Shown here: positions 2,376 to 23,907 of the stretch, piece after piece | Layout of the letters: every line of letters begins with the position of its first letter | Position numbering within the stretch: the stretch's first letter is position 1 | From: Patescibacteria group bacterium | Lineage (GTDB): Bacteria; Patescibacteriota; Microgenomatia; UBA1400; MFAQ01 | Reading direction: 5' to 3' | Assembly: GCA_035291985.1 (NCBI GenBank) | Contig: DATDRC010000066.1 | Location: 1-28,273, forward strand | DNA: 28,273 nt | Notes under the pieces: model-generated | Seen by the model: the letters and a program-made list of their open reading frames with translations, nothing else | What the model was told of the DNA's origin: nothing | The model's database searches: none | Translations under genes and position numbers: made by a program

Positions 2376-3035
2376 ATGGCAGAAATCCTAAAACAAGTTG
2401 CTGATTTATTTTTGAATATCGACCAGAACTTGGCGGCAATCGTAGCCAACTTTGGGGTGTGGTCTTATGCCCTTCTTTTTGCCGTTATTTTTTTGGAAAC
2501 CGGCATAGTGGTAACGCCGTTTTTGCCGGGGGACTCGTTGATTTTTGCGGCCGGGGCTTTGGCGGCCAGCGACGCTTTTTCAGTCTTGTGGCTGTTTATT
2601 TTGCTGGTGGGTGCGGCAGTCCTCGGGGATACGGTCAATTATTGGATCGGTCATGTCGTCGGCCCGAAGGTTTTTGAGGGCAACCACCGATTGTTGAAGA
2701 AGGAGTATCTCCATAAGGCGCAGGCCTTTTACGATAAACACGGTGGGGCGGCGATCGTCCTGGCCCGTTTCGTGCCGATCGTGCGGACATTTGCCCCTTT
2801 CGTCGCCGGGGTTGGCAAGATGAACTATTCCCAATTCGTCTATTACAACATTATGGGCGGCGCTTTTTGGGTGACGCTGTTTCTTTTTAGCGGCTACTTT
2901 TTCGGCAACCTGCCCTGGGTGAAGCATAACTTTGAGTATCTGATTATCGCCATCGTCCTGATTTCAGTGGTGCCGATGGTGATCGAAGTCTACAAGGCAA
3001 AGACGGATAAGCATCACTACGACAAGAGCAAGTGA
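2376..3035 (+). CDS. dedA: DedA/VTT family membrane protein
   Basis: FLETG...PFLPGDSL and ARFVPIVRTFAPFVAG motifs; ATG 2376 chosen because it lies 7 nt after TAGAAT (2363-2368); alternative starts 2367/2370. Confidence 0.92.
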   Translation: MAEILKQVADLFLNIDQNLAAIVANFGVWSYALLFAVIFLETGIVVTPFLPGDSLIFAAGALAASDAFSVLWLFILLVGAAVLGDTVNYWIGHVVGPKVFEGNHRLLKKEYLHKAQAFYDKHGGAAIVLARFVPIVRTFAPFVAGVGKMNYSQFVYYNIMGGAFWVTLFLFSGYFFGNLPWVKHNFEYLIIAIVLISVVPMVIEVYKAKTDKHHYDKSK

Positions 3036-3061
3036 CACTTGACGGTAGTGTCACGTATGAT
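3032..3061 (+). promoter_or_regulatory. Putative promoter (GTGACA-N18-TATGAT) overlapped by a perfect 8-bp inverted repeat
   Basis: GTGACACT(3032-3039)-TGACGGT-AGTGTCAC(3047-3054); TATGAT 3056-3061 is 6 nt before ATG 3068. Confidence 0.5.
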
Positions 3062-3067
3062 TAATCC

Positions 3068-5644
3068 ATGGAGTGGAGAAAGGGTTTGTCAGAAGAAGAA
3101 GCAAGCAAGAGACTTTCGGTCTACGGTCGGAATGAGGTGAGGCTGGATGAAGGGCGGGTTTGGGTCAGAATTCTTTTTGGTCAAGTGAAATCGCCTCTGG
3201 TCTATGTTCTCTTGATTGCCAGTGGGGTTTCTTTGCTTCTTGGCGATGTGATTGATGCCGGAGTAATTTTTTTGGCGGTTCTGATCAACACCGTTTTCGG
3301 CTTTTTCCAGGAGTACCGGGCGGAAAAATCGATGGAGGCCCTCTCCAAACTGTTAACTCCCAGGGCAAGAGTCAAACGGGGCGATGAGTGGGAGGAGGTC
3401 GAGGCGACCCTATTGGTCCCCGGCGATGTGGTGAAACTGACGATTGGTTGGAAAGTGCCGGCGGACGGCCTGTTAATTGTCGAGGAGGATATGTACCTCA
3501 ACGAAGCGATTTTAACCGGGGAAAGTATGCCGGTAGTCAAGAAAACCTGGAAAGCCGAGGAAGGGTTTGAGTTGGGCAACGGCTTCTTTGACGGGATAGC
3601 CGGCGACTATAAAGGGCTTACCGGGACGGTGGTGGAAAAAGGGGTGGGGGAGATGTTGGTGGTGCGAACCGGATCGAGGACAAAGATGGGGGGGATCGCC
3701 AAGGTGGTGCGGGAAAGAGGGATTGGTCGGACGCCGTTGCAGAAGCGGCTTGATCGGTTGACGGGGCAACTGACGCTGGTTGTCTCGGTGGTGGCGGGGG
3801 GGGTCTTTATTTACGGTGTCATGACGGGAAATTCTTTCTTAACTTTTTTGAATACGTCGGTCGCTTTGGCGGTGGCGGCGATACCCGAAGGACTGGTGGT
3901 CGGGCTGACGGTTATTTTGGCGGTGGGGATGAAGCGGATTTTGAAAAGAAAAGCCATTGTCAGGGGACTGATGGCGGCGGAAACGCTGGGGAGTGTGTCA
4001 GTAATTTGTTTGGATAAAACCGGAACGATCACCGAGGGAAAAATGGCGGCGGTGGGGGCGGTGACCGATATAGGTGAAGGGACCGATGAGCAGATTGCGG
4101 ATGAGGGTAAGCATGATGAGGAGACGATGAGGTGGCTGATCGAGGGAGCGTTCTGGTGTAATGACCAGCGCGATCCGTTGGAGATTTCGATGCGGGACTG
4201 GGCGGTGCTCCGGCTGGAAAAAAGGTTAGGTAAGGACGCCATCTCGCGGTTTGTTCGAAAGAGTGAATTGCCTTTTGCTCATGAAACAAAATATATTGCC
4301 ACGAGACATGAAGTAAATAACAAAGTGGTTGATTTTGTCAGTGGGGCACCGGAGATTGTTTTGGAAAGATGTAGTTTTAAAGACGAAAAAATAAGAAAAA
4401 AGTGGGGAGAGAGATTTGTCGAGGTGGGGATTACCGGTTATCGGATGGTGGCAGTAGCGATGAGAAAAAGAGAGGCCGGGTTGGTCGGGAAAAAGATTGA
4501 ACAAACCGATATTGACGGACTGACATGGCTGGGACTGGTGCTCTTTAGCGATCCGCTTCGGGGCGGGGTGGCGGAATCGCTCTCGCGGGCGATGGAAGCG
4601 GGGATCAAGTTAAAGGTAATCACGGGCGATTATAAAGAGACCAGTTGGGCGGCGGTCCGACAGGTAGGGTTGGTGGAAGGCCATGAGGTAAAGCCCGATC
4701 TGGTGATGTTGGGGGAAGACTTTGACAAACTTTCGGGAGAAGAAAAGAAACAGAAAATTTTAAATTCGGTCTTGTTTGCGAGAACGTCGCCGGAGCAGAA
4801 ATACGAGATCGTCGAAACTCTGCAGGCAAACGGGGAGACGGTGGCGATGATGGGTGACGGGGTGAATGATGTTCCGGCCTTGAAAAAAGCCGATATCGGC
4901 ATCGTCGTCGAGGACGCCAGCGATCTGGCCCGTGAGGTGGCCGACCTGATCCTGCTGGACAACAACTTCGACACAATCTTGGCGGCGGTTGAAGAAGGCC
5001 GGGGGATGTTTGATAACTTGCGGAAAGTAATTCTTTTTCTATTATCCGATTCTTTTGCGGCGATAGTGGTGATAGTGGCCTCGATTTATTGGGGATGGCC
5101 CTTGCCGCTACTGGCTTCACAAATCCTGTGGATTAATTTGATCAGCGATGGATTTCCGTATATGGCCCTGACGGTGGAGCCAAAAGAAAAAGACTTGCTG
5201 GCGCGGAAACCAATAGCCCGAAACGCGCCGCTGATGGAGTGGAAAAGGGTCGCTTTGGTGGGAGTGATTTCGGTAACGGCGGGAGGACTGGCCCTGGCGG
5301 TATTTGGGTTCACATTTTTCTATCTTCATAAAGACATTGTCTTTTCGCGGACGATGGCTTTCGCGATGCAGGGGATTTCCTCGCTCGTTTATGTTTTTTC
5401 CAGCCGCTCGCTCTCCCGCCCGATTTGGAAGGATAATCTTTTGAAGAACCCATTTTTGAACTTGGGAGTTTTGGGTGGGTTAGCGCTCCAGGCGACGGCG
5501 ATCTACTGGCCGCCCTTGCAGGGGATATTCAGTACGGTGGCGATTTCGCTTGGCGACTGGCTGTGGTTATTCGGCGGCGGTTTGTTATTGATCGTCGTGG
5601 TTGAGACGATCAAGGCGGCTTACTTTCGAAACGGGTATAGTTAA
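3068..5644 (+). CDS. Cation-transporting P-type ATPase, type IIA (Ca2+-like)
   Basis: TGES, IPEGL, DKTGT phosphorylation site, TGD, MMGDGVNDVPAL, INLISDGFP. Confidence 0.93.
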   Translation: MEWRKGLSEEEASKRLSVYGRNEVRLDEGRVWVRILFGQVKSPLVYVLLIASGVSLLLGDVIDAGVIFLAVLINTVFGFFQEYRAEKSMEALSKLLTPRARVKRGDEWEEVEATLLVPGDVVKLTIGWKVPADGLLIVEEDMYLNEAILTGESMPVVKKTWKAEEGFELGNGFFDGIAGDYKGLTGTVVEKGVGEMLVVRTGSRTKMGGIAKVVRERGIGRTPLQKRLDRLTGQLTLVVSVVAGGVFIYGVMTGNSFLTFLNTSVALAVAAIPEGLVVGLTVILAVGMKRILKRKAIVRGLMAAETLGSVSVICLDKTGTITEGKMAAVGAVTDIGEGTDEQIADEGKHDEETMRWLIEGAFWCNDQRDPLEISMRDWAVLRLEKRLGKDAISRFVRKSELPFAHETKYIATRHEVNNKVVDFVSGAPEIVLERCSFKDEKIRKKWGERFVEVGITGYRMVAVAMRKREAGLVGKKIEQTDIDGLTWLGLVLFSDPLRGGVAESLSRAMEAGIKLKVITGDYKETSWAAVRQVGLVEGHEVKPDLVMLGEDFDKLSGEEKKQKILNSVLFARTSPEQKYEIVETLQANGETVAMMGDGVNDVPALKKADIGIVVEDASDLAREVADLILLDNNFDTILAAVEEGRGMFDNLRKVILFLLSDSFAAIVVIVASIYWGWPLPLLASQILWINLISDGFPYMALTVEPKEKDLLARKPIARNAPLMEWKRVALVGVISVTAGGLALAVFGFTFFYLHKDIVFSRTMAFAMQGISSLVYVFSSRSLSRPIWKDNLLKNPFLNLGVLGGLALQATAIYWPPLQGIFSTVAISLGDWLWLFGGGLLLIVVVETIKAAYFRNGYS

Positions 5645-17479: not shown

Positions 17480-19231
17480 ATGAAACCAGCAGACAAAATT
17501 AGACAAGCGATTGAGGGGGTAGTTGGGAAGAATATCGATTTTGTGGTGGAGCATCCGGCGGATGAGAGTCATGGGGATTACGCAACCAATGTGGCGATGA
17601 TGATGGAGGGTAATCCGCGAGAGTTGGCGCAGGGGCTGGCGGAGAAGTTAAAAAAGAGCGCTGTTTTGGGTGGGGTGGTGGATCTCCCCCGAATCGAGGT
17701 GGCTGGCCCGGGATTCATCAATTTTTGGTTAAAAGAGGACTGGTTGCTTTCAGAAGCTGGTGAGGTAACCCAACTAAGTGATGAATATGGGAAAGGAAAC
17801 TGGGGAAAGGGACAGATTTATGAAGTTGAACATACCTCGCCAAATCCGAATAAGGCGATGCATTTGGGGCACCTTCGAAACAACGTAACGGGGATGGCGG
17901 TGGCTAATTTGTTTGAAGCGGGTGGAGTGAAAGTAATTCGGGATGCGGTTGATAACAACAGAGGGATCGCGATAGCAAAGTTGATGTGGGGATTCCTAAA
18001 GTTTGCCAAAAAAGATGGGAAAGAAACCGAAGATGTTGATTATTGGCATCTTCATCAGGATGAATGGCAAACTCCAGAAGATAAGGGGATGCGACCAGAT
18101 AGGTTTGTGGACGAGTTGTATGTCAAGGGAGCGGAAGATTCTAAGAATAAGCCGGTAGAGGAAAAGGTCAGAAAGTTGGTAGTCGATTGGGAGGCGGAAA
18201 ATAAGACGACTTGGGCTCTTTGGAGAAATGTTCTGGACTACTCGTATGAGGGGCAAGCAATGACTTTGGCGAGATTGGGTAACCGCTGGGATAAAGTTTG
18301 GCATGAGCACGAACACTATAAAGAGGGTAAAGCATGGGTCGATAAGGGGATCAAAAAGAAAATTTTCAAAGTTCTACCTGACGGGGCGGTATTAACTGAC
18401 TTATCAAAATTCGGTTTGACGGACACAATTGTAATTAAGTCTGATGGAACGGCTCTTTATATTACTCAGGATCTAGCGTTGACTTCGTTGAAAAAAAAGA
18501 CATACAAAGCTGATCGGTTGTTTTGGGTGATTGGTCCGGAGCAATCATTAGACCTGAAACAAATGTTCGCGGTCTGTGAACAGTTGGGGATTGGAAAAGT
18601 TAGCGATTTCTCCCATATCCCTTATGGATATATGTCGATCAAGGGACAGGGGAAGATGAGTAGTCGGACGGGAAACGTAGTTTATATTGACCAGCTCTTG
18701 GACTCGGCCAAAGATGAAATCAGTAAGGTAATTAAAGAGAGGGGCTTTACAAAGAAAGAGGAAGAATCGGTTTCGGAAAAGCTTGGTGTGGGTAGTGTTA
18801 AGTATTCTATTTTGAAAGTCGGAAGAATGACGGATATGGCTTTTGACCTGGCAAGCTCAATTTCTTTTGAGGGGGATTCCGGGCCTTACTTGAATTATGT
18901 TTATGTCAGAACCAAAGGAGTGGCGAGAAAAGCTAACGACGATAAAGCGGAAGTGATAATAGATGAGTTATCAGACACTGAAAAATCAATTCTAAGGTGG
19001 ATTGCCAGATTTTCTGAAGTAGTTGAGTCAGCCGGAAAAGATTTGGCTCCAAATTTAGTGTGCTCCTACTTATTTGAACTGTCACAGAAATATAATTCTT
19101 TTTATAGTAAAAACCCGATCGCGGGTGGAGGAAGATATAAGGGTAGAAGATTAACGATAAACAATGCAGTGGGACAAATAATCAAAACAGGGTTGAAACT
19201 TTTGGGAATTGAGGTGGTGGAAAAGATGTAG
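17480..19231 (+). CDS. argS: Arginine--tRNA ligase
   Basis: HGDYATN, AGPGFINF, EHTSPNPNKAMHLGH, KSDGTALY, GKMSSRTG, FEGDSGPYLNYVYVR; SD AGGAG upstream. Confidence 0.97.
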   Translation: MKPADKIRQAIEGVVGKNIDFVVEHPADESHGDYATNVAMMMEGNPRELAQGLAEKLKKSAVLGGVVDLPRIEVAGPGFINFWLKEDWLLSEAGEVTQLSDEYGKGNWGKGQIYEVEHTSPNPNKAMHLGHLRNNVTGMAVANLFEAGGVKVIRDAVDNNRGIAIAKLMWGFLKFAKKDGKETEDVDYWHLHQDEWQTPEDKGMRPDRFVDELYVKGAEDSKNKPVEEKVRKLVVDWEAENKTTWALWRNVLDYSYEGQAMTLARLGNRWDKVWHEHEHYKEGKAWVDKGIKKKIFKVLPDGAVLTDLSKFGLTDTIVIKSDGTALYITQDLALTSLKKKTYKADRLFWVIGPEQSLDLKQMFAVCEQLGIGKVSDFSHIPYGYMSIKGQGKMSSRTGNVVYIDQLLDSAKDEISKVIKERGFTKKEEESVSEKLGVGSVKYSILKVGRMTDMAFDLASSISFEGDSGPYLNYVYVRTKGVARKANDDKAEVIIDELSDTEKSILRWIARFSEVVESAGKDLAPNLVCSYLFELSQKYNSFYSKNPIAGGGRYKGRRLTINNAVGQIIKTGLKLLGIEVVEKM

Positions 19232-19273: not shown

Positions 19274-19290
19274 TGGGGAAATTGTATAAA

Positions 19291-19442
19291 GGCGTTTGAG
19301 GGGAGTCGCGATCTCCGAGCCTCTTGGAGAAATACAAGACGGGTAAGCCCGAAATAGCAGGAATAAGTTCATTAGGGGTGGTACCGACTTAAAGAGTCCC
19401 CCGTCTGTTTTGATATTTTCGAAATAGACGGGGGATTTTTTT
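19291..19442 (+). ncRNA. T-box riboswitch (ultrashort Stem I, transcriptional; probable Arg specifier)
   Basis: T-box GGGGTGGTACCG (19375-19386); antiterminator GGGG-TGGTACC-GAC-TTAAAGA-GTC-CCC; mutually exclusive terminator; Stem I GGC..GA..GA-GCC (19291-19321) with CGC at 19307-19309; TCTTG/CAAGA stem; CGGG-TAAG-CCCG stem IIA. Confidence 0.88.
19397..19442 (+). terminator. Intrinsic terminator of the T-box leader
   Basis: TCCCCCGTCTGTTT / GAAATAGACGGGGGA stem followed by T7; the 5' arm overlaps the antiterminator 3' strand. Confidence 0.9.
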
Positions 19443-21902: not shown

Positions 21903-22595
21903 ATGAAAAAGGAGTGGTGGGCACATCGGTCCGTGGATAGTAGTGGTAGGGTTGTAGAGGTTCTTGTCGGAACGCATCAGGTAGCGTTGGTGATAGAGTT
22001 TGACAGCAATGGAGAAATAATGTCAGGACTGTATCGACCGGAAAAAGGACTATTGGTGAGTGTAGATCCGAGGGTTCCGAAGCCGCAGGAATTGTATCGG
22101 GATGTGGCTTATTACCGTTTTTGTGACTTTTTGGGTTGGCAGGGGGTGGCCCCCGTCTTTCCTTGGCAACTTGAGCCGGGAGATAAGGGTGTAATTCGGC
22201 CATATTGGAAAGTGATAAAAAACATGGAGATTTATCATTTTGGTAAAAAGAAACTGGATGGTGGTGACCGCTTGTTCTGGAGGCGACTGGCTCTGGCCGA
22301 TTATATTTTTGGGGTTGGCGACAGGGTCAGCAATGATTTTCTGATTACCCAAGATGGTACCCAAGTGGTGGATAGCGGTTTTTCTTTCCTGCCAGAACTA
22401 AACTTTCCTTATCAACAATCGATTATTCGCGACCTGTATAGGGGCGATAGCGTTGATGATTCACTGCTTACTGACTTGGAGCGACTACGGCAAGACTTTG
22501 ATCCAAATTATGTTGATGGCTTGATCGGAGAGATTGAGTTGTACTGGGTTTGGGAACGGGTGCGAAGGATTCGGTCTGAGAAGACGTTTTGTTGA
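21903..22595 (+). CDS. Atypical kinase-fold protein resembling SCO1664 / PI3-PI4-kinase-like family
   Basis: LYRPEKG, RDVAYY..DFLGW..VAP, RRLALADYIFGVGDR, VVDSGFSF, EIE..WERVRRI match the remembered SCO1664 pattern (YKP..G, REVAAY..LGW..VP, RR.A.FD...NADR, VDHG..F). Confidence 0.6.
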   Translation: MKKEWWAHRSVDSSGRVVEVLVGTHQVALVIEFDSNGEIMSGLYRPEKGLLVSVDPRVPKPQELYRDVAYYRFCDFLGWQGVAPVFPWQLEPGDKGVIRPYWKVIKNMEIYHFGKKKLDGGDRLFWRRLALADYIFGVGDRVSNDFLITQDGTQVVDSGFSFLPELNFPYQQSIIRDLYRGDSVDDSLLTDLERLRQDFDPNYVDGLIGEIELYWVWERVRRIRSEKTFC

Positions 22596-22625
22596 CTTGA
22601 TATTTCGTGTTATATTTGTTGTAGG

Positions 22626-22682
22626 ATGCAAGTGCGTCGGCGTAGAACAATTAGCAATGATTTAACGGAATACCCGCTCTAA
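22626..22682 (+). CDS. Arginine-rich attenuator leader peptide MQVRRRRTISNDLTEYPL
   Basis: ATG CAA GTG CGT CGG CGT AGA ... CCG CTC TAA; extended -10 TGTTATATT (22608-22616) upstream; stop codon lies in the terminator loop; below the ORF-track size cutoff. Confidence 0.75.
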   Translation: MQVRRRRTISNDLTEYPL

Positions 22683-22695
22683 TGGCGGGTTTTTT
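22672..22695 (+). terminator. Intrinsic terminator / attenuator upstream of the deiminase-like gene
   Basis: ACCCGC-TCTAATG-GCGGGT-TTTTT, ending 3 nt before ATG 22699. Confidence 0.85.
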
Positions 22696-22698
22696 GTT

Positions 22699-23907
22699 AT
22701 GAGCAGACAAAATCCGGAAAGAAGAGAGGCCTTAGGAAGGAATGAGGTGGGTATAAATGAAGAAGTGGATTGGTTGGCGACGACTTTATCTTGGGGTCCG
22801 ACCGGGGTAGAAGCAGTTTTGGCAACTTTGATTCCGGAAAAGCACAGTTTGTTTTTCGACAAGATGGACGTGCTGTTGGCAAGAAGGCAGTACGAGGCCT
22901 TTCATGACACGCTTGAAAGAAGAGGTTGTTGTGTAATCAGGGTGAGAGACTTGGCAACGGAGGCGTTATTAAGAAGAGGTGGAGTGATGCCAGCCAAAAG
23001 TTTGGCGGAACTGAGGGGGAGAATTATTGCAAAGGCTGACACTCTTGTTCATAAGTATGGAAGAGGTATGAGAGAGGTGGGTGATTGTATCGCGGAGGTC
23101 CTGGTCGAAGACGCGGCCCTTTACGGAGAAGAGGGGGCGATTAGGTTGAATGCGATTCTGGCCCAAGTGGATACCGATTTTCTGCCGATGGCGAACCTAT
23201 TATTTGGACGGGATCAAAGCAACGTGGTGGGCGACATCTTGCTTTGGTCAAACATGATGCATGAAATTCGCCGTCCAGAAGTAGATTTGTGGATGATAGC
23301 GACGGAATCATTACTGGCTAATATCAAAACGACGGTGGTAACCGGTTTGGGCAGACTGGAAGGTGGAGATACGATTGTCCATAGGGGCAACTGCTTTGTG
23401 GGAGTTGGTGGCAGATCGAATCTAGCCGGTGTTGAGCAAATTGCACCGTCAGTTTTGGGTGCCGGCTTCAGGATGTTTGCGGTTTATCATCCCGAGAGAG
23501 ACGCGGGTTTGCGTGAGCACCAAACAACCATGCATTTGGACACTTTCTATATGCCCGGTCCAAAAAATACCGCAGTTGTATTAATGGAAGAGGCTCACGA
23601 AAGAACATTGCTGGAAGTAGTGGAAAACTCTAATGGAGTGAGATTGGAACCGAGAGGTACTTTTGCCGATTATCTGCTGGAGTCAGGAGCGGACATCATT
23701 CCTTTGACCCGAGAACAACAACTGAACTACCAGGCAAACTATGTGGTGTTGGATGAGAAAAGCGTCATGTTGACCATCTACGGCGATGGCTATCTGAAGG
23801 GGGAATTTGAGAAGCGGGGGGTGGAGGTCGTGGACGGCGATTTGAGCGCCATCACCAATGGATACGGTGGAGCCCACTGCTCTTTGACGCCCATACTTCG
23901 AATTTAG
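22699..23907 (+). CDS. Arginine deiminase-like protein (amidinotransferase superfamily)
   Basis: LFFDKMD..ARRQYEAFHDTL, PMANLLFGRD, RLEGGD, MHLDT, GYGGAHC (catalytic Asp/His/Cys); 402 aa. Confidence 0.85.
   Translation: MSRQNPERREALGRNEVGINEEVDWLATTLSWGPTGVEAVLATLIPEKHSLFFDKMDVLLARRQYEAFHDTLERRGCCVIRVRDLATEALLRRGGVMPAKSLAELRGRIIAKADTLVHKYGRGMREVGDCIAEVLVEDAALYGEEGAIRLNAILAQVDTDFLPMANLLFGRDQSNVVGDILLWSNMMHEIRRPEVDLWMIATESLLANIKTTVVTGLGRLEGGDTIVHRGNCFVGVGGRSNLAGVEQIAPSVLGAGFRMFAVYHPERDAGLREHQTTMHLDTFYMPGPKNTAVVLMEEAHERTLLEVVENSNGVRLEPRGTFADYLLESGADIIPLTREQQLNYQANYVVLDEKSVMLTIYGDGYLKGEFEKRGVEVVDGDLSAITNGYGGAHCSLTPILRI

Follow-up and report, generated by a model that had tools for sequence, protein, structure and literature searches.

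A 28,273-nucleotide stretch of DNA from a Patescibacteria group bacterium (contig DATDRC010000066.1; the whole stretch is called the window) carries, directly upstream of a gene for a divergent protein of the arginine deiminase (ADI) family, a short leader made up of a promoter, a small open reading frame (sORF) with tandem arginine (Arg) codons and an intrinsic terminator. The same unit stands before related genes at 17 other loci, and we are confident that the leader is a real and conserved element. It is also likely that the leader works as a translation-dependent attenuator of the ADI-like gene. As to mechanism, the favoured reading, to which a probability of roughly 0.55 is given, is a pyrBI-like attenuator that would act by occlusion of the terminator and sense charged tRNA-Arg, such that sufficient arginine would switch the ADI-like gene on; this direction of control is deduced from the anatomy of the leader.

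All features of the leader lie on the forward strand. An extended -10 element, TG-n-TATATT, can be read at 22608-22616, 9 nt before the ATG of the sORF. Transcription is predicted to start at about 22623-22624, which would make the sORF leaderless or nearly so. The sORF (22626-22682) has 18 codons followed by a TAA at 22680-22682, and its predicted product is MQVRRRRTISNDLTEYPL. The proposed sensor is its run of four tandem Arg codons at 22635-22646, CGT CGG CGT AGA, which begin at 22635, 22638, 22641 and 22644. From the last of these there are 25 nt to the first stem base of the intrinsic terminator, ACCCGC(T)/(G)GCGGGT (22672-22690), a hairpin of 7 pairs, 5 of them G-C, with an energy of -10.7 kcal/mol and a loop, CTAAT, that holds the stop of the sORF. 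The U-tract, T5 then GTT (22691-22698), abuts the start codon of the ADI-family gene, leaving no room for a promoter, and no Shine-Dalgarno (SD) motif is present. An earlier, sequence-only reading of this DNA had placed the sORF and the Arg codons at these positions and had described the hairpin with the TAA in its loop and the T5 behind it, with about 25 nt between the Arg codons and the hairpin. Re-reading of 22200-23100 found all of its coordinates correct, and the distance was measured as it had been given.

The window is contig C66 of a genome of groundwater origin (G000; 0.75 Mb in 112 contigs, 93.7% complete) in which SD motifs are not enriched at gene starts, at 15% vs 19% at random positions. 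Across the genome, boxes resembling a -10 element are concentrated 6-11 nt upstream of the ATG, as in 110 of 430 long ORFs, and leaderless mRNAs appear to be the norm for first genes. Set beside these gene starts, that of the sORF is a typical leaderless one.

Taken from this genome alone, the sORF is weak evidence that is suggestive only. Arginine accounts for 5.06% of the codons, RRRR occurs 4 times in the 136,276 residues of long ORFs, and several of the 653 short ORFs that lie behind a TANNNT hexamer also carry RRR or RRRR. A scan of the genome for leaderless sORFs with amino-acid runs gave scattered matches only, probably due to chance. The sORF at 22626-22682 is unique in the 0.75-Mb genome in ending in a terminator with a gene start directly behind it, and no further leader of this design was found elsewhere in the genome. 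The leader is considered more than chance because the same architecture recurs elsewhere. Homologues of the ADI-like gene were collected from 61 related genomes (3 of which carry the gene), 185,579 species genomes, JGI metagenomes and a collection of 5.8 billion proteins. The last of these yielded 21 ADI-like relatives, for which contigs were retrieved. Upstream regions of the collected homologues were then read and measured. The promoter, the sORF with Arg codons and the terminator were found together at 17 further loci, where the ADI-like proteins are 35-95% identical to that of the window; the window and these loci make up the 18 leaders to which the counts below refer.

Within the clade of at least 46% identity, all homologues with an intergenic leader retain an in-frame run of 2-4 Arg codons, a frame open to the hairpin and the terminator. 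A looser version of the leader is found at L060, where the protein is 35% identical. In the protein tree, the leader-bearing genes form one clade of 11 rows and another of 5, both well supported, with L060 in addition on a long branch. The nearest leader-less relatives, L057 and L058, have the ADI-like gene inside an operon with a spacer of 3-11 nt, and no Arg-codon leader was found before 26 more distant ADI-like genes (23-45% identity; other phyla, L057, L058 and L047). Loss of the Arg run or of the ORF from homologous leaders was the check that the sequence-only reading had proposed for itself; with the units kept at 17 loci, its hypothesis survives.

The gene contexts of the 18 leaders differ and include one mosaic locus and three at which the upstream gene is divergent. 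The three are L055, L056 and L059. With the upstream gene running in the opposite sense there, the terminator is not simply that gene's own. It could be supposed that a chance sORF overlies the ordinary terminator of the upstream 230-aa gene, given that RRR and RRRR short ORFs do arise elsewhere in the genome and that the terminator in the window follows a co-directional gene. This explanation is effectively refuted by the preservation of the architecture at 17 other loci, three of them with a divergent upstream gene, and by the signatures of frame and codon, described below, that indicate translation. The mosaic locus, L049 (689-2706), combines an upstream 229-aa gene and a leader of the L002 type (77% identical) with an ADI-like gene of the window type (77% identical), which places a recombination junction at or near the boundary of leader and gene. 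When transcripts of the locus were looked for, no RNA run was listed as containing it. Four groundwater DNA runs were also compared; the leader is invariant in them and the sole difference lies at 22771, so the population data are uninformative.

A TGnTAnnnT extended -10 box lies 7-10 nt before the sORF ATG in 17 of the 18 leaders. A TTGAC(A/T) box is also seen at 22592-22597 in the window, and likewise in L004, L005, L048, L050 and L052, 5-13 nt (mostly 7-8) before the -10 hexamer. It is too near the -10 element for a standard -35; an unusual kind of promoter element, or a binding site, is conceivable.

All 18 leaders carry 2-4 consecutive Arg codons, always in frame with the 5'-proximal ATG. 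The run is preceded by 2-8 codons (13 in L060), with the first Arg codon at codon 3 to codon 9, and it is spelled in synonymous ways: CGT CGG CGT AGA, AGA CGT CGC CGT, AGG CGT CGT CGT, CGA CGT or CGC CGT. Of 17 leaders compared, all 17 have an sORF frame free of stops as far as 13 nt from the stem, vs 3 of 17 for each of the +1 and +2 frames. Together, the frame and codon signatures point to translation of the sORF. Among the Arg codons of the leader runs CGT is in the majority, yet it is the rarest CGN codon of the window genome (12% of Arg codons). The 35 tRNA genes found there by aragorn include tRNA-Arg with the anticodons TCG, CCG and CCT. No tRNA-Arg with ACG (for CGT/CGC) or TCT (for AGA) is in this set, which is incomplete, lacking tRNA-Met, His and Trp as well, and allows no conclusion.

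Outside the Arg run, the leader peptides have little in common. They range from 8 to 35 residues and their C-terminal portions are unconserved, as can be seen from MTGRRRRTIRSLKGSNNPL (L005), MLQRRRRIIRIET (L050), MLIRRRRIIEA (L051), MQRRRSRLSSTVNGI (L052), MKNIFVRRIINNILTF (L004), MKSFLPRRIIINFCIL (L048) and MNKFVACRRIVIKYIKP (L055); the leaders of L056 and L042 have longer frames that read through the terminator. In the window and in L052, the same nucleotides before the stem are read in different frames. Given that both the C-terminal peptide and its frame vary, it is the open frame that matters and not the peptide. These comparisons bear on the possibility of an arrest-peptide sensor, of the TnaC, SpeFL or fungal AAP kind, in which an RR[T/I/M]I peptide together with free arginine or a related compound would stall the ribosome over the terminator. 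The residues that follow the Arg run are indeed biased (T/I/M and then I in most leaders), and the L055 and L059 peptides share 16 of 17 residues with three synonymous changes. However, in peptides of such different length only RR and a hydrophobic residue are common to all, the 8-10 C-terminal residues that would lie near the peptidyl-transferase center are unconserved and change frame between relatives, and the position of the stop varies by 60 nt. An arrest peptide is therefore thought improbable.

The terminator is present throughout, with hairpin energies of -7.4 to -14.3 kcal/mol, T-tracts of 5-8 nt and a stem probability of about 1.0 in every leader. Its stem, which reads CCCGC/GCGGG, CCTGC/GCAGG, CTCGC/GCGAG (with a U-G intermediate) or ACCGCC/GGCGGT, differs by compensatory changes, which indicate that the terminator is under selection. 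A MAFFT alignment of the leaders mis-registers the 3' arms. In all leaders the T-tract ends 0-11 nt before an SD-less ATG of the ADI-like gene. Because there is no room for a promoter between the two, the ADI-like gene is taken to be transcribed only by readthrough of the terminator.

This arrangement also speaks to the idea that the leader is an independent small gene, for a small protein or a small RNA, that has its own promoter and terminator and merely sits beside the ADI-like gene. In favor of this, the unit has a complete set of promoter, ORF and terminator, and its peptide is basic. The unit, however, is always directly upstream of an ADI-like gene and never elsewhere in the window genome, only 0-11 nt separate its terminator from an ATG that lacks a promoter of its own, the peptide is poorly kept outside the Arg run, and there is no Rfam match at gathering scores. 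An independent gene is thus very unlikely.

No measure of the leader is as constant as the spacing between Arg run and stem. From the end of the run to the first stem base there are 22-32 nt (median 26) in 16 of the 18 leaders, the exceptions being L060 (19 nt) and L044, while the position of the first Arg codon and that of the stop vary. The stop begins between -13 and +48 nt relative to the start of the stem, with 16 of 18 at -4 to +48 and 2 of 18 at -13. The placement of the stop within the loop, which the sequence-only reading had treated as part of the design, is thus true of the window and not conserved among its relatives. In 16 of 18 leaders the stop is at most 4 nt short of the stem, within it or past it, so that a ribosome that elongates or terminates on the sORF would cover the 5' arm.

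These distances can be set beside measurements made in Escherichia coli, where the ribosome shields about 10 nt on the 3' side of its A site (PMC4824070). With the tR2 terminator, termination falls to an efficiency below 10% if a stop codon lies 5 bp ahead of the terminator, is about 90% if the distance is 28 bp, and reaches its maximum beyond 30 bp (PMC4824070). Applied to the leaders, the E. coli distances imply that a ribosome stalled at the Arg codons would no longer interfere with the hairpin, and that a ribosome that has moved past them would abolish termination.

In the occlusion mechanism, the extended -10 element would start a leaderless transcript at about 22623, and the 5'-proximal ATG would open the sORF with its Arg codons. 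With ample charged tRNA-Arg, the pioneer ribosome would track RNA polymerase and cover the 5' arm of the hairpin as the 3' arm emerges, resulting in readthrough. With scarce charged tRNA-Arg, the ribosome would stall about 25 nt upstream, leaving the whole hairpin free to form and resulting in termination; a lack of translation would lead to termination as well. The spacing of about 25 nt may be the shortest distance at which a stalled ribosome spares the hairpin, and as a "ruler" from sensor to hairpin it matches the measured distances of interference between ribosome and terminator. A ribosome that ends at the sORF stop would be 0-25 nt from the ATG of the ADI-like gene, where re-initiation is possible and would add a second, concordant layer of control. 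In short, the Arg-codon sORF would serve as a "speed check" about 25 nt before the terminator of an arginine-consuming enzyme, and the odds are about even that the leaders constitute a family of attenuators with such inverted logic and no antiterminator.

The opposite logic, that of a classical attenuator induced by starvation, would have the ribosome stalled at the Arg codons favor readthrough, and would fit an enzyme that supplies arginine, such as an amidinotransferase. The trp, his and leu attenuators are marked by just this pairing of tandem regulatory codons with a terminator behind them, and in the L044 variant the stalled ribosome would itself mask the stem. When the leader was compared with Rfam families of riboswitches, T-boxes and leaders, no match was found at gathering scores; a likeness to the Trp, Phe and Leu leaders was seen below threshold (E 0.1-0.4, 17-20 bits), far below the gathering scores and driven by the terminator. 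The folding results do not agree with a starvation-induced switch. Neither an antiterminator nor an anti-antiterminator was found in any of the 18 leaders, whether the full leader was folded, the RNA under a stalled ribosome was masked or the fold was computed before the 3' arm is made. The terminator stays the minimum-energy fold with the RNA under an Arg-stalled ribosome masked, which bears out, for the window and all other leaders, the absence of an antiterminator already remarked upon in the sequence-only reading. In addition, the AU-rich spacer lacks complementarity to the 5' arm, and the stall would occur 22-32 nt from the stem, where termination in E. coli is near maximal (PMC4824070). 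Induction by starvation is accordingly regarded as unlikely, to much the same degree as an arrest peptide.

Several observations weigh against terminator occlusion governed by the charging of tRNA-Arg. The leader terminator follows the sORF start codon at a distance of only about 47-70 nt. In E. coli, a terminator 30 bp after the start codon is lowered by only about 10% by translation, and the ribosome does not catch RNA polymerase in the first 100 nt or so unless a pause synchronizes the two (PMC4824070); a convincing pause element was not found in the leaders. In about a third of the lineages the run consists of only two Arg codons. An AU-rich stretch containing AUUA, which follows the Arg run (22647-22660 in the window), is kept partly independently of the frame. 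Finally, L044 (1443-1500) has a 33-nt in-frame deletion that puts the Arg codons of its peptide, MTGGRRPL, on the stem. The ADI-like protein of L044 is identical to that of L045, and under the occlusion model L044 may be a deregulated or constitutive allele, or it may be an assembly artefact. As for the AUUA stretch, it is present in all leaders and L052 reads it in another frame than L050; it may be constrained at the level of RNA or DNA, perhaps as a pause signal. A 5' hairpin that pairs AUG with CGU was considered as a pausing or synchronizing element and rejected, in that it is part of the minimum-energy fold in 10 of 18 leaders with z from -1.7 to +0.9, which is not significant.

The low number of Arg codons in about a third of the lineages would also suit a device for antitermination or ribosome loading that responds to general translational capacity, with no specific sensing of arginine and with Arg codons kept for another reason. 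In such a device the leaderless sORF would deliver a ribosome to the SD-less ADI start, by termination followed by re-initiation, and would open the terminator. The window genome does without SD-led initiation, and between the sORF stop and the ADI ATG there is either an overlap or a gap of 0-25 nt, both of which would favor such a device. It would, however, need neither Arg codons nor a constant distance from these to the stem, whereas tandem Arg codons are the one coding feature that is universally kept, despite synonymous changes. A loading device is therefore held to be possible although rather unlikely, and the occlusion attenuator that senses charged tRNA-Arg continues to be preferred.

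The gene under control, at 22699-23907 on the forward strand, encodes a divergent ADI-family (guanidino-group-modifying) hydrolase of 402 aa that matches Pfam PF02274 with 85 bits. It scores 67 bits against TIGR01078, the arcA equivalog, for which the cut-off is 489, and 71 against NF002381, for which it is 414; by these scores the enzyme is not a canonical ArcA. Among solved structures, arginine deiminases are the closest to it. A clade profile matches the Pseudomonas aeruginosa ADI, 1RXX, with an E value of 2.5e-16, and the alignment matches the positions of EGGD, Arg, MHLDT and GGxHC, in agreement with an ADI fold and its catalytic Cys, His and acidic residues. Neither arcB (ornithine transcarbamylase, OTC) nor arcC (carbamate kinase) nor the C-terminal domain of ArgR was found in the 93.7%-complete genome by searches in which control genomes scored. 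The protein is thus probably an active, stand-alone guanidino-group hydrolase outside the arcABC pathway. The sequence-only reading had called it a deiminase, of which the ADI domain and catalytic positions stand; "ADI-like" is as far as the name can be taken, given the low score against arcA and the failure to find arcB and arcC. The same reading had argued that no ArgR would be needed, and the search for the ArgR C-domain agrees with it. With no ArgR, OTC or carbamate kinase found in the genome, a cis-acting sensor is plausible, and it makes physiological sense for an arginine-consuming enzyme to be switched off when charged tRNA-Arg is low.

Genes for arginyl-tRNA synthetase recur near the ADI-like gene. 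In the window, argS (17480-19231) lies three genes upstream; at L054, argS (2716-4212) is immediately downstream and convergent; and at L004, a 611-aa ORF (3717-5552) downstream of the ADI-like gene is probably argS. The Arg-codon leader and the recurrent proximity of argS are circumstantial evidence that the substrate is arginine or a close derivative, and it is plausible that the enzyme degrades arginine.

The gene order in the window is argS, a 428-aa protein, an M20 ArgE/DapE-like deacylase, a 230-aa protein, the ADI-family protein, tyrS, thrS and lysS. The 230-aa gene (21903-22595, forward strand) is upstream of the leader and outside the switch proper, and its own transcripts would also meet the terminator. 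Its product gives weak matches only (PI3/PI4-kinase, SCO1664 family). The gene accompanies the ADI-like gene at many loci, including the leader-less L003, and is on the opposite strand in L056; its product is probably a functional partner of the ADI-like enzyme.

A second leader, which resembles a T-box, lies at 19286-19442, between argS and the genes for the 428-aa, M20 and 230-aa proteins. It has the T-box sequence GGUGGUACC, a long terminator and a short stem with the loop GUCGCGA, and it scores 23 bits against the Rfam T-box, vs a gathering score of 93. The element is kept nearly base for base in a congener, G002 (L061, about 2530-2700, minus strand), the proteins of which are about 48% identical. 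Its specifier can be read as CGC (Arg) or as GCG (Ala) and does not settle the direction of control of the Arg-codon leader. That the two leaders form a reciprocal, two-sensor arginine module is a speculative and rather doubtful proposal.

If the occlusion mechanism is correct, this would be the first leader-peptide attenuator induced by amino-acid sufficiency, and the first leader-peptide switch to be characterized in the Patescibacteria, or candidate phyla radiation (CPR), where it would work without a protein regulator. To our knowledge, these bacteria are ultrasmall and have very few transcription factors, and their gene regulation is almost undescribed. The leader would offer a compact example, of about 75 nt, of a logic opposite to that of known attenuators, with terminator occlusion tying the expression of a catabolic-type enzyme to amino-acid sufficiency. 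It would also be independent evidence that arginine or a close relative is the substrate of an orphan ADI-like enzyme. A full-text search of the literature found no leader-peptide attenuator for arginine deiminase and no such transcription attenuator based on arginine codons.

Among known systems, the pyrBI (pyrL) and pyrE leaders of E. coli are a close parallel in mechanism. There, a ribosome that trails RNA polymerase blocks the terminator hairpin, and loss of coupling results in termination, with UTP-sensitive pausing of the polymerase as the variable. The Arg-codon leaders share with these a leader ORF that extends as far as an intrinsic terminator or passes through it, and the lack of an antiterminator. 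They differ in that the proposed variable is the speed of the ribosome at tandem Arg codons rather than UTP, and in that they are leaderless, have 8-35 codons and control an amino-acid-consuming enzyme in a CPR-like bacterium. With trpL, hisL, leuL, pheL, thrL and ilvL they have in common a short leader with tandem codons and an intrinsic terminator before the regulated gene. In the trp, his and leu type, however, the 1:2, 2:3 and 3:4 helices are mutually exclusive, whereas the Arg-codon leaders are without an alternative helix; and readthrough occurs there on starvation, whereas the logic predicted for the Arg-codon leader is inverted and its target is not a biosynthetic operon. As far as we know, the classical amino-acid attenuators all turn biosynthesis on in starvation and none has been established for arginine. 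Induction of a deiminase by arginine, as predicted here, is familiar from the arcABC(D) operons, where it depends on the protein regulators ArgR/AhrC and ArcR. The present case differs from these in that the search of the window genome found no ArgR domain, OTC or carbamate kinase, and in that the enzyme falls far below the arcA cut-off.

Arginine codons in a leader have been described for speF of Salmonella and E. coli, where two consecutive Arg codons in orf34 (SpeFL) tie downstream expression to arginine via ribosome pausing (PMC6386406). Translation of orf34 prevents premature termination, in a process that involves Rho, unmasking of a ribosome-binding site and folds that are sensitive to RNase G, and high arginine lowers speF (PMC6386406). 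Both systems have Arg codons in an upstream ORF whose translation prevents termination, or is proposed to do so in the Arg-codon leader. The speF leader, in contrast, is long, SD-led and Rho-dependent, and its expression falls at high arginine. The nearest precedent for leaderless sensory sORFs is the mycobacterial "Cys ribulon", in which ribosomes stalled on leaderless polycysteine sORFs unmask a downstream ribosome-binding site, leading to induction by limitation (bioRxiv 10.1101/834739). In both cases, a run of codons for a single amino acid in a leaderless sORF is, or is proposed to be, the sensor. The Cys ribulon is controlled at translation and responds to limitation, whereas the Arg-codon leader employs an intrinsic terminator and is predicted to be induced by sufficiency; if so, the use of leaderless sORFs as sensors would extend beyond the Actinobacteria.

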